From Octopus sinensis (lineage: Eukaryota), in the NCBI RefSeq assembly GCF_006345805.1, contig NC_042998.1, forward strand, positions 135,842,001 to 135,906,000: a stretch of 64,000 nucleotides of DNA, given 5' to 3'. Below, in pieces: positions 12,781 through 64,000 of this stretch. Below the pieces are notes generated by a model. It did not search any database. It saw only the letters and a list, made by a program, of their open reading frames with translations, and was not told the DNA's origin. The stretch's first letter is position 1. Each line of letters starts with the position of its first letter. The translations under genes were made by a program, and so were the position numbers.

Positions 12781-12812
12781 TGATCAAATAAAAACATGAT
12801 GCCAAGGATTCA

Positions 12813-12890
12813 GCGGTACATATGTTTCGGGCCTTTATTAGACAGATTTATAACAATGCATAATGTATGTCTGTGGCCTTCTTCAGCCGC
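12813..12890 (-). ncRNA. Type I hammerhead ribozyme, intact core
   Basis: Minus strand: GCGG [CUGAAGA] A GGCC ACAGA..UCUGU..GGCC C [GAAA] CAUAUG UA CCGC. Stem I is GCGG/CCGC, stem II is GGCC/GGCC plus ACAGA/UCUGU, stem III is the palindrome ACAUAUGU, and the cleavage triplet is GUA. Confidence 0.85.
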
Positions 12891-13051
12891 GCACAACAGC
12901 TTCCACAAGGACATGTGTTACATAAAAAATTCTTGCTTGGGGATGCAAATTCTCTCATTCGCGTACGACATAGTGTGGCAACAGCATAGAATTGAAGCAT
13001 CCATCTCTTTCTTTTCTCAATGTAGAATGAGGAAATTTGGATGTTGAAGTA

Positions 13052-13720
13052 ACTTTCAGAACAAGAGAGAAGGAGACACTGATGGTCCTATGGAAAACAT
13101 TTGTCCTCAGCCGCTTGGACTACTGCTCCCAACTTTGGTCACCACACAATATAAAACAAACAGCAGAACTCGAAGCAACTCAGAGAAGCTACACAAAGAA
13201 AATCGTCTCAATGCAAAATGTAAGCTACTGGGAAAGACTGAAGGTATTAAACCTCTTCTCCCTGGAGCGGAGGCGGGAGAGATATGCAGTGATATACATC
13301 TGGAAAATCCTGGAGGGTCTTGTCCCAAACTTTGGCATTCAAAGTTACTCCAACCGCAGAACGGGGCGCCGCTGCGTGGTGCCAAGGATTCCAACATCAC
13401 CATCAAAATACAGGTCCAGATACTGCAACAGCTAGGGTTCCAGAGGACCACAGCTCTTTAACATCCTCCCTAAATGCCTGAGAGACTTACATGGTGTGGA
13501 TGTGGGTTTCTTTAAAACTAAACTGGATCTCTTCTTGTTGGGAGTCCCAGATGAACCTACCTCACGACAGGAGACACGGATGCGGGCAGCAGCATTGAAC
13601 TCCCTTGTTGATCAAGTGCCACGTATCAGAGGTGGATTCACAAACTAGTGTAGCTCATTCAGCGGTGGTGCCCCAGCATGGCCGCGGCCTTCGGGCTAAA
13701 ACATTTTTAAGGATTTAACG
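13052..13720 (+). mobile_element. 5'-truncated CR1/L2-group LINE (RT C-terminus, 3' UTR and tail), copy 1
   Basis: [54 protein letters not shown]. One frameshift near 13432, then GPQLFNILPKCLRDL..KLDLFL. Short TTTAAGGA-like tail. Confidence 0.9.
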
Positions 13721-13722
13721 AT

Positions 13723-61700: not shown

Positions 61701-62302
61701 TGACACACTCAAACATGAACAGCTAGACCATTACGGAATCTTAAAATCTAAACACAAGCTATGGTACACATGACTAAACAAATAAAATGATTACAAAGGA
61801 AATGAGGCATGTCAAGTAGACAGAAGGACTATGTTTTATTCTGTGATACATTTATTTATGTAACTTACTCAGAAACTGACTCAAAAATTCACTTTCAACA
61901 AATCTGTGTGTGTGTGTGTGTGTATGTATATGTATATGCACGTGTTTGTGTGCATGCGTGTGTAGCTCTTTTCAAGTGGGTCAAAAATATTTTGCAAGAG
62001 TTTTATCGTTTCTTTTTAAAATAAACAATAAAACATTGAGGTGTTTATGAGTAAGGAAGTAGTGGAAAGTGAGATAAATCTGGAGTACATAAATATGGTG
62101 GGGTGGATTATGGGGTGGAAAAAAAACGTGACAACAATAATGCACAGGAAATGGATCAAAGAGAAAAATAGCAATTATGAAACTTTAAAAGCAATTATTA
62201 AAAGCATAAGGTGCTGGGACGGCTATAAGGGTATGAATGGCTGTGTGGATATGAAAGTCGCTTTGTAACCACATTGTTTTAAGCTCAAACCTAATAGGTG
62301 GC

Positions 62303-62773
62303 TAATGATTTGTAGGTACGCGGTATTTCGTTATGCAACCATGATATACTATAAAGTATATTAAATGCTTTTGTAAGTCAATACCGCAGTAGAAAGCGAT
62401 ATTGACTATAAAAACGTTTAATATACTTTATAGTATACTGTGGTTGTATAATGAAACACTGTGTACCTAAAAGTCATTAGTATTTACATACCAGCTTCCA
62501 GGAATATGTTTAATATGTAAAATTGGTATATCCAATAACTACACCGATATACATAGTGGCTATTTAAGCAATGTGTTCGAGAATGATTAAAGGATTAGAT
62601 GAGTGCTGATGAAGACACCCCCCCCCCCGCGCTCCCAGAAATATGGCATATATGCACCCATTACCCATTTTTCATCTTCCAACTCATTATTTCATCACAC
62701 CTGAAACGTAACAAAAATTAGTGCTGGCTATAATGTCTATAGACTATCTGCAGAGATAAACTTAACAAGTAAT
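62303..62773 (+). mobile_element. 471-bp insertion with a 5' inversion, a decayed hammerhead and a 12-bp TSD, splitting a family-B SINE
   Basis: CTAATAGGTGGC occurs at 62291-62302 and 62774-62785, and the SINE resumes after the second copy. Hairpin at 62302-62480, CTGATGA at 62606 and GAAA at 62638. Confidence 0.8.
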
Positions 62774-62929
62774 CTAATAGGTGGCATTTTGGACGAGTGT
62801 TTTTTATAATAGCTTCAGACTGAACAATGCATTATGAACCAAACTGACAAATGGCAACTGTAGGAGAACCTATCAAACACATGAACACACCACGTGTGTG
62901 TGTGTGTGTGTGTGTGTGTGTGTGTATAG

Positions 62930-64000
62930 TATTGACTGTCAGTAGAAAGAGTATCCAATACTATATCAGAGGTAAGAATACTTTTATTTAGCCGAATCAG
63001 TCTCCTGCTACTTTGCATTCGCAGACACTACTACTTTGCATTCATAGTGCAAACTAGATAAATGGAAGTCAAAATCACTTTGTAACTTTTGCTAATTAAG
63101 AACAAAATATATGTATGTTAGGAAGGGCATCCAACCACACATAAGGAGGAGGAGGAGGAGGGGAGGGAAGAAGAAGAAGAAGAAGAAGAAGAAGAAGAAG
63201 AAGAAGAAGAAGAAATTTATGAAAACTGATGTGACTCTTCAAAAAGGTAAATAAGCAATAAGAGTGTCTGTCTTCCTTGGGTTCAAAATGGAAAATGAAA
63301 AAATGCAGAAATATAGACATCTAAAATATCAATGAGAATATCCTGCATTCTTTTTTTAGACAAAATGACAATATCAGTTTTTCATAACTGGTTACAAGGG
63401 AAAAGAAAAAAAAGAAAACAAGAAAGGGAACTCAGTCAAACAGTTTTGAGTAAATGTGATGAAATTTGCCTGTCATTTTATTCATTCTTCCAGGGAGTGA
63501 CAAATATATTTGTCCTTACGCATTTTGAGGGCTGAAAGTGCAGTGGTGTCAGAATATTTTCTGAGAATGTGCTCTTTCAAGTGTTCCTCAAAATTACAGC
63601 TATTTGATGTAGAATGTTTGGCAAGTACTATTGAACTACTGCTATTGTGCCTAACGTCAAACCTACACCCACTGGATCTTTTATTTAATTGCTCTGTTGT
63701 GCAACCAATATAAATCAAGTTGTGTTCGATGCATTCCACTGCATACAGCAAATAAGAATCTTTATATGTCCCACCTTCTGTATAAATCTGAACATATGTT
63801 ACAATTTGTGATGGAATTGACTTGACTCATATTGTTGCACAATGAACAGGGCTTACCATTCTTGCAGCTGTTTTTTGGGGTACAGCATTCAGACTCCAAT
63901 GGTAGTTTTCTTGGGGTTAGAGTTAGTGTTTAATAGCTCTAAAATATTTTTATTTGCATCTAAAGGGGTACAATAGGTAGATGAGGAAATATTTGTTTTA
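62930..64000 (-). mobile_element. Penelope-like element 3' part with a GIY-YIG endonuclease remnant; runs off the window edge
   Basis: 63482-63751 reads LLYAVECIEHNLIYIGCTTEQLNKR..VLAKH. Upstream are GKPCSLCNNM (CxxC) and GGTYKDSY, with frameshifts. Confidence 0.8.

Follow-up and report, generated by a model that had tools for sequence, protein, structure and literature searches.

Probable minimal hammerhead ribozymes in the 3' ends of several Penelope-like families, in a TA-rich stretch of Octopus sinensis DNA

Introduction

Minimal hammerhead ribozymes have been described from Penelope-like elements, and here we consider six hammerhead-shaped motifs, h1 (12813), h2 (35875), h3 (41151), h4 (48839), h5 (55748) and h6 (62599), in a 64-kb stretch of the octopus Octopus sinensis (contig NC_042998.1; the window, numbered from its first letter). 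We believe that the supported motifs are probably minimal hammerheads lying in the 3' ends, or pseudo-long terminal repeats (pseudo-LTRs), of several Penelope-like families, present in short copies that are truncated at the 5' end and in many cases sit in TA microsatellites.

The closest described motifs are those of PMC4209133, where the parts compared here report thousands of minimal hammerheads per genome (2,000-9,000 motifs), extremely variable, in many unrelated families and mostly dispersed as single copies. These have U3-A8 cores, a 9.1 bulge, a palindromic helix III and a helix I of 2-5 bp, and pairs of motifs on opposite strands, 100-700 bp apart, are described as well, with mollusc examples. 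For the elements themselves, the compared parts of PMC8557442 describe an inverted 5'-truncated copy, a one-sided tail and a microsatellite bias, both for Neptune (citing Arkhipova 2006) and for Naiad, and name the origin of the tandem and inverted structures and of the microsatellite bias as open. In the Octopus vulgaris genome 190 families of Penelope-like elements together account for 6.83% of the sequence, or about 4.4 kb per 64 kb, so several Penelope-like copies are to be expected in any 64 kb of octopod DNA; ribozymes go unmentioned in the part of that account that we compared (PMC13282606). Our literature search found no account of the families described below or of octopus or cephalopod hammerheads; Repbase and Dfam may hold them.

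Results

Six hammerhead-shaped motifs of unequal standing

The window is AT-rich and dense in microsatellites and short interspersed repeats, the latter presumably related to octopus short interspersed elements (SINEs). All six motifs are present where the original prediction placed them, with the following extents, strands and stacking-energy scores:

12813..12890, minus strand: h1, a minimal type I hammerhead with the top score (24.5), predicted to cut after 12817
35776..35920, minus strand: h2 with its AT-rich 3' part, a possible decayed U3:A8 hammerhead (score 15.1)
41055..41203, minus strand: h3 with its 3' part, a likely decayed hammerhead (score 11.4), ending in (TA)22
48835..48900, minus strand: h4, a likely hammerhead with an exact CUGAUGA core (score 13.9, fold z -2.66)
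55659..55787, minus strand: h5, forward copy, a U3:A8 hammerhead at 55752-55787 (score 20.1) followed by 96 nt of 3' sequence up to (TA)n
62599..62661, plus strand: h6, an exact CUGAUGA core with stem III, unsupported (score 8.8)

Predicted cuts for h2 to h5 fall after 35878, 41164, 48843 and 55755 on the minus strand, and that for h6 after 62652 on the plus strand.

The core, CUGANGA (or UUGANAA) with GAAA and NUH, is exact in h1, h2, h4, h5 and h6, and has two mismatches in h3, a motif whose stems I and III are good. A bulged 9.1 nucleotide and a G10.1-C11.1 pair closing stem II are present in h1 (with one extra C) and in h5, and are not found in h2, h3, h4 or h6. Helix I has 4 bp in h1, eight positions with one mismatch in h3 and about 3 bp in the h5 family, and is poor in h2, h4 and h6. 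Taken singly, h1 combines an exact CUGAAGA core, an unpaired A9.1, a long loop II and a palindromic stem III, and h5 combines UUGAAAA with an AAUU stem III and U17. In h4 a 9-bp hairpin stands in stem II and the junction pairs are damaged; h2 nearly lacks stem I; h6 lacks stem II, and its stem I is out of register. The predicted stem III, palindromic or closed by a 1-nt loop, is found in all six, with a C.C mismatch in h4. The stem sequences, claimed to be unrelated, are mostly so, save that h3 weakly matches an inverted copy of h4 described below (25.3 bits, reached by 0 of 1208 background tiles). Stem III of h4 differs from that of h3 by a C-G / U-A swap, which counts as covariation only if this weak match is real.

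Chance levels were set with 596 block-dinucleotide shuffles of the window and five descriptor tiers, which hit the real sequence 1, 6, 4, 22 and 26 times against shuffle means of 0.28, 3.4, 2.9, 16.8 and 27.6; the real count was reached in 138, 76, 194, 64 and 398 of the 596 shuffles, respectively. The sole match to the strictest descriptor is h1, and h4 is listed by no tier. The stacking-energy score, designed after the motifs had been seen, was applied to 578 candidates and 228 shuffles. The four highest scores belong to h1, h5, h2 and h4, in that order, while h3 takes seventh and h6 seventeenth place, with 0.00 (h1), 0.01 (h5), 0.26 (h2), 0.50 (h4), 2.2 (h3) and 8.8 (h6) chance hits expected per window; maxima were 10.9 in the reversed and 13.9 in the complemented window. 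None of the 228 shuffles reached h1. The descriptor counts match background. Only h1 stands alone statistically, because the score of h5 needs correction for an inversion junction, and it is only for h5, and there in dependence on that junction, that the folded monomer takes a hammerhead shape. A whole-window Rfam scan gave no hammerhead among the 150 of 442 rows seen. Overall, h1 is firm and h5 is a real, abundant element whose motif fits well; h4 and h3 are likely, h2 is doubtful and h6 is unsupported.

Other candidates fared less well. A hand-picked one at 42767 reached a best z of 3.3 against shuffles and lies outside the top 25 scores, and those at 57742, 47023 and 22928, the highest-ranked of the unlisted candidates, were treated as chance.

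The motifs agree with the minimal hammerheads of PMC4209133, as far as that source was compared, in type I layout, in the CUGANGA/UUGANAA core and in the palindromic helix III, and h1 and h5 agree in G10.1-C11.1 as well. The S. mansoni(4) motif shown there, with UUGAAAA, a 3-bp helix I and U17, is a close analogue of h5, and a C. gigas motif has A-U-U-U after GAAA, the AAUU/U17 pattern of h5. The differences are the unusually long loop II of h1 and the G at 9.1 of h5. The compared part of the supplement contains no cephalopod example.

The h1 insert

The best motif lies in an insert bounded on both sides:

12779..13055, minus strand: h1-bearing insert, its 3' end adjoining a TA array and its 5' side a long interspersed element (LINE) on the opposite strand

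The 3' end meets the TA array, which is degenerate and 5.3 kb long (7513-12778), 38 nt past the predicted cut. On the other side, between the insert and a 2.2-kb TA/TG/CA array (13725-15946, the source of spurious Rfam microRNA hits), stands a young-looking, 5'-truncated LINE 3' end (13056-13720, plus strand). Its tail is similar to a 3' end common to many SINE copies in the window; we take it to be of CR1 type, and it had no Pfam match. A nuclease C-terminal remnant suspected upstream of h1 from the translations was not found by a profile of one nuclease clade.

The h5 locus and its high-copy family

At h5 the forward copy is met by a second copy on the opposite strand:

55784..55924, plus strand: h5 inverted copy, 5'-truncated, joined at a 4-nt microhomology and ending in (TA)n

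This copy scores 97.7 bits against a null maximum of 24.9, and an alignment of the arms agrees. About 60 nt at its end (55862-55924) form an additional tail, which is itself family sequence. The inversion bears directly on the hammerhead. In the window its stem I appears to have 7 bp, and five of these seven pairs are supplied by the inverted arm, as is evident because copies of the family part from the window sequence at 55787. With the upstream letters proper to the family, stem I has about 3 bp, and a small competing hairpin forms over it.

The family was surveyed by comparing 55485-55945 with public contigs from 4 of 24 listed runs. Matching contigs numbered 18,269, 15,174, 5,734 and 704, most of them 90-99% alike, under at least three organism labels; the two largest sets come from DNA-like runs and the 5,734 from a third organism. 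In the three large runs the depth summed over the hammerhead came to 1.3-3.1 million, where single flank contigs had about 30-60. This suggests family copies in the order of 10^4-10^5, a rough figure, as depth is not copy number. The family thus seems more abundant than the motifs in the compared part of PMC4209133, with the caution that the two kinds of count are not comparable. A separate low-level repeat signal lies in the flank at 55565-55612 (summed depth 1,100-2,800). The motif was absent from viral and metagenome contigs, and family contigs in one run, guessed to be of RNA, gave no evidence of expression.

Across 55753-55787 a single variant is listed, and since it falls in loop II, the family preserves its core, stem III and stem II, the last having 5 bp in most copies; nine variant rows fall in the 83 nt downstream. 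Other family contigs show the same inversion with different breakpoints. In two runs, 82-94 contigs end at one internal point into AT-rich sequence, the very point at which the forward copy in the window meets (TA)n; the full distance from cut to end in the family is about 150 nt, not 96. Upstream of 55787 the loose ends agree at 0.46-0.56 over 30 letters; about 24 consensus letters are common to two runs, and some records reach 50-150 letters upstream. The joints of several inversions fall only a few letters from 55787, but joints were listed only when few letters intervene, which favours an apparent clustering. No empty insertion site was found among contigs matching the stretch, in a comparison that skipped TA junctions.

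Copies of h4

Two further stretches of the window resemble h4:

48995..49036, plus strand: inverted partial copy of h4, covering GAAA, stem III, the cut site and the 3' flank (45.0 bits)
53598..53634, plus strand: h4-like fragment, from loop II to GAAA (32.0 bits, 0 of 1208 background tiles)

For the inverted copy the null maximum over 506 tiles was 22.7, and for the fragment the top score in reversed and complemented controls was 28.5. A nuclease C-terminal remnant had been suspected upstream of h4 from the translations; the profile was negative, and the stretch is in fact the inverted copy. No TA follows h4 downstream. Nearby are two degenerate 27-bp tandem arrays (47347-47612 and 48540-48696, the second block just downstream of h4), a direct duplication (47981-48083 / 48343-48445) and an inverted pair, 94% alike and 4 kb apart (49484-49582 / 53481-53579), the second member of which ends 20 nt from the 53598 fragment.

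TA ends, inversions and spacing

Four inserts, those of h1, h2, h3 and h5, end in (TA)n, as predicted, and TA context formed no part of the energy score. An enrichment of (TA)n on the 3' side is borne out among window candidates, with (TA)5+ lying 30-130 nt downstream in 4 of the 8 top-scored, against 4.7% of those below the top 20 (binomial p 3e-4). Inversions had been proposed at three motifs. Those of h5 and h4 hold and that of h6 does not, so that two of the six motifs pass a test for an inverted 3' part; a one-sided tail is seen at h5, and four of the six motifs show neither tail nor inverted copy. The cut-to-end distances of 96, 102, 109 and about 121 nt reproduce. They do not amount to a shared design, because h1 has 38 nt, the putative end of the h6 insert is the start of a SINE piece and the h5 family runs about 55-60 nt longer. 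Tandem arrays or direct copies of any of the six motifs are absent from the window.

Of the weaker motifs, h2 is doubtful as a hammerhead. It is situated between TA tracts and is the only motif with TA upstream as well as downstream. The h6 motif neither ends in TA nor has its 3' part copied in inverted form, and it may be a chance occurrence. The inversion once read there does correspond to a real palindrome nearby, one without the h6 3' part:

62302..62480, strand not assigned: palindrome of 180 bp, its arms 80% alike, 125 nt upstream of h6

It may not belong to h6 at all and be a hairpin element in its own right.

The GIY-YIG nuclease remnant

The proposed GIY-YIG remnant was confirmed (63482-63826 matches GIY-YIG; PF01541 E 0.0022, Atlas 0.94), and two features belong to its surroundings:

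63432..63910, minus strand: Penelope-like C-terminal GIY-YIG nuclease, broken by frameshifts, its open reading frame (ORF) ending at 63432
62941..63000, minus strand: stretch with a weak likeness to the 3' end of h3, lying about 430 nt past the stop codon of the nuclease

A search gave 77 homologs, with a profile hit of 129.7 bits, and five of eight scanned homologs have a reverse transcriptase (RT) followed by a C-terminal GIY-YIG. The ORF in the window stops after GIY-YIG, as in the homologs, and the RT itself is absent from the window. A CX5CxxC linker is present at 63837-63866, and of a CCHH motif invariant in nine homologs, two of four residues are left in this decayed copy. No longer relatives were found among 212 candidates, and a near-length search gave one. 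Judged by the features in the compared parts of PMC8557442, the remnant fits a Neptune/Nematis-type element. It is encoded on the other strand from h6, to which it bears no likeness.

The sole tie between this nuclease and the hammerhead inserts is the h3-like stretch, a mutual best hit with h3 at 25.5 bits, where the null maxima were 24.5 and 24.3, and so a weak one; 62941-63000 is possibly the 3' end of the nuclease-bearing element. Mobilisation of the inserts by this element, as suggested in the original prediction, is conjectural. A 14-15-bp inverted repeat behind the stop codon (63230-63243 / 63371-63385) was seen by eye.

Other repeats in the window

At 1145-2673 a unit of about 518 bp occurs three times head to tail, with (TAA)n between the copies, which are 98% alike and contain no high-scoring hammerhead. 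A fourth copy, at 82%, lies at 22806-23205 beside an RT remnant (23335-23694; PF00078 E 0.0024). These units are possibly, we presume, Dong/R4-type 3' ends in TAA repeats. A Pif1 helicase remnant on the minus strand (24047-24370; PF21530 E 5.6e-16), with a neighbouring frame at 24920-25342, is likely a Helitron relic.

Discussion

Overall, the assignment to Penelope-like elements, already part of the original prediction, holds up, and it is strengthened by the fit to the published consensus, the inverted copies of h4 and h5, the TA ends and the high-copy h5 family. At the same time, our data speak against two of its companions. The motifs are not retrozymes, because none is in tandem, and the density, diversity and TA bias once thought perhaps undescribed are expected here, high diversity and microsatellite bias being already published for Penelope-like elements; the families are further members of a described element type. 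Indeed, the likeness to the endonuclease-containing Neptune and Nematis elements, in the compared parts of PMC8557442, extends to a C-terminal GIY-YIG behind CX2-5CxxC, to truncation, inversion and tail, and the layout of the h5 inversion and tail is that of fig. 2 in that source; the differences are a tail of about 60 nt in the window, against 30-40, and the fact that no insert is tied to an ORF in the window. Non-LTR retrozymes, as described in the parts compared of PMC7229834 and bioRxiv 10.64898/2026.07.22.740005, are alike in being non-coding, in carrying a type I hammerhead, in their pseudo-LTR derivation and in their dispersed monomers; they differ in having tandem units, each with a hammerhead of the canonical kind, and circular RNAs, whereas the motifs in the window are minimal and non-tandem.

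Several results weigh against placing these motifs in Penelope-like 3' ends, and some of them would fit a window in which h1 alone is a hammerhead. Descriptors loose enough to admit the weak motifs hit at the background rate, and h2, h3, h4 and h6 are each singly at chance level. The Rfam hammerhead models gave no match for any of the four motifs scanned singly (h1, h4, h5 and h6, E up to 10), so the covariance-model check lent no support. With only its two non-junction stem-I pairs, h5 scores 13.4, a chance-level value, and its 9.1 base is G where the published consensus has H. One variant row in 35 nt against nine in 83 nt is too few to show selection, and no covariation is seen among family variants above 10%. 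Copy number was examined for one of the six motifs, h5. Nor does the nuclease help. No hammerhead was found in the 630 nt behind it, and the stretch 62800-63520 is old and broken by a microsatellite and a SINE piece; none was found behind the nuclease in three of three related loci, where only 120-350 nt of downstream sequence are present; and no RT or endonuclease remnant was found beside the six motifs by a 75-homolog profile and tblastn of 77, both of one clade. If h1 were the only real hammerhead, the others would be chance or decayed look-alikes in AT-rich repeats, and h5, with its competing hairpin over stem I, another hairpin repeat of Helitron or miniature inverted-repeat transposable element type. 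We consider this improbable, in that the TA enrichment is independent of the score, the breakpoints of the inverted h4 and h5 copies vary, as those of terminal inverted repeats do not, and h5 agrees position by position with published U3:A8 motifs. More remote still is an origin of the inserts as the 3' ends of Naiads, the TA-targeting clade of Octopus, some with hammerhead-like cores. The compared parts of PMC8557442 and its file S1 list Naiad_Obim and Naiad_Ovul with a (TA)n preference, the latter with an 'HHR_half_core', and octopus Naiads share (TA)n, inverted copies and tails with the inserts of the window. Yet Naiads, by the same parts, lack canonical hammerheads and are old remnants in cephalopods, and most h5 contigs are 90-99% alike; four short h1/h3/h5 motifs are absent from the supplement text, in which long sequence runs are cut; and the Naiad nuclease is N-terminal where that of the window is C-terminal, and h1 and h5 are complete minimal motifs.

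A less remote alternative concerns the h5 family alone, which could be a dedicated non-autonomous element of about 200-250 nt that has its 5' end shortly before the hammerhead and relies on a Penelope-like partner for copying in trans, in the manner of a SINE-like parasite or a dispersed retrozyme monomer. The contig abundance in the two DNA-like runs and the third organism, the low agreement of the upstream loose ends, as if copies soon diverge, and the inversion joints close to 55787 would all suit such an element, and non-autonomous pseudo-LTR derivatives are described in the compared parts of PMC8557442 and bioRxiv 2026.07.22.740005. Some of these strands can be turned, however. The low agreement would arise equally from several subfamilies or from variable truncation, about 24 upstream letters are shared and some records run 50-150 letters further, the joint listing favours apparent clustering, and no tRNA was found in the window. 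We therefore regard a dedicated element as unlikely, and are just as hesitant about its fuller form, in which the family would be an undescribed, very high-copy (order 10^4-10^5) short retroelement of this lineage, built around a U3:A8 hammerhead, trans-copied, homing to (TA)n and often inverted head to head. If true, the h5 family would be a Penelope-driven counterpart of SINEs and a natural library for Penelope integration.

For inserts that are Penelope-like 3' ends, a pathway can be proposed. Consider a TA microsatellite, which by analogy with known elements would be nicked by the GIY-YIG nuclease. Target-primed reverse transcription would then begin either at the true 3' end of the RNA or at an internal AU-rich point, and the use of two priming points would leave a one-sided tail. 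Early termination of reverse transcription would give the 5' truncation, and the inversion would come from another copy primed on the opposite strand and joined at microhomology. For cleavage the hammerhead would need to form a dimer, in tandem parent transcripts; copies that are single or on opposite strands should be inactive passengers. Since the DNA copies still have the hammerhead upstream of the cut, the copied RNA was presumably uncut at the motif, and this retention fits a weak, dimer-dependent cleavage.

Three consequences follow for the biology of these elements and for the search for them. Hammerhead scans need care at inverted inserts, as a long stem I can be faked by an inversion junction. 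Minimal hammerheads, the U3:A8 form included, would be extended to a group from which we found no literature report. And the h5 family, which is abundant and fairly young, with inversion breakpoints that are many and independent and a 3' end at either of two points, offers thousands of junctions on which models of priming and microhomology in Penelope-like integration may be put to a computational test.

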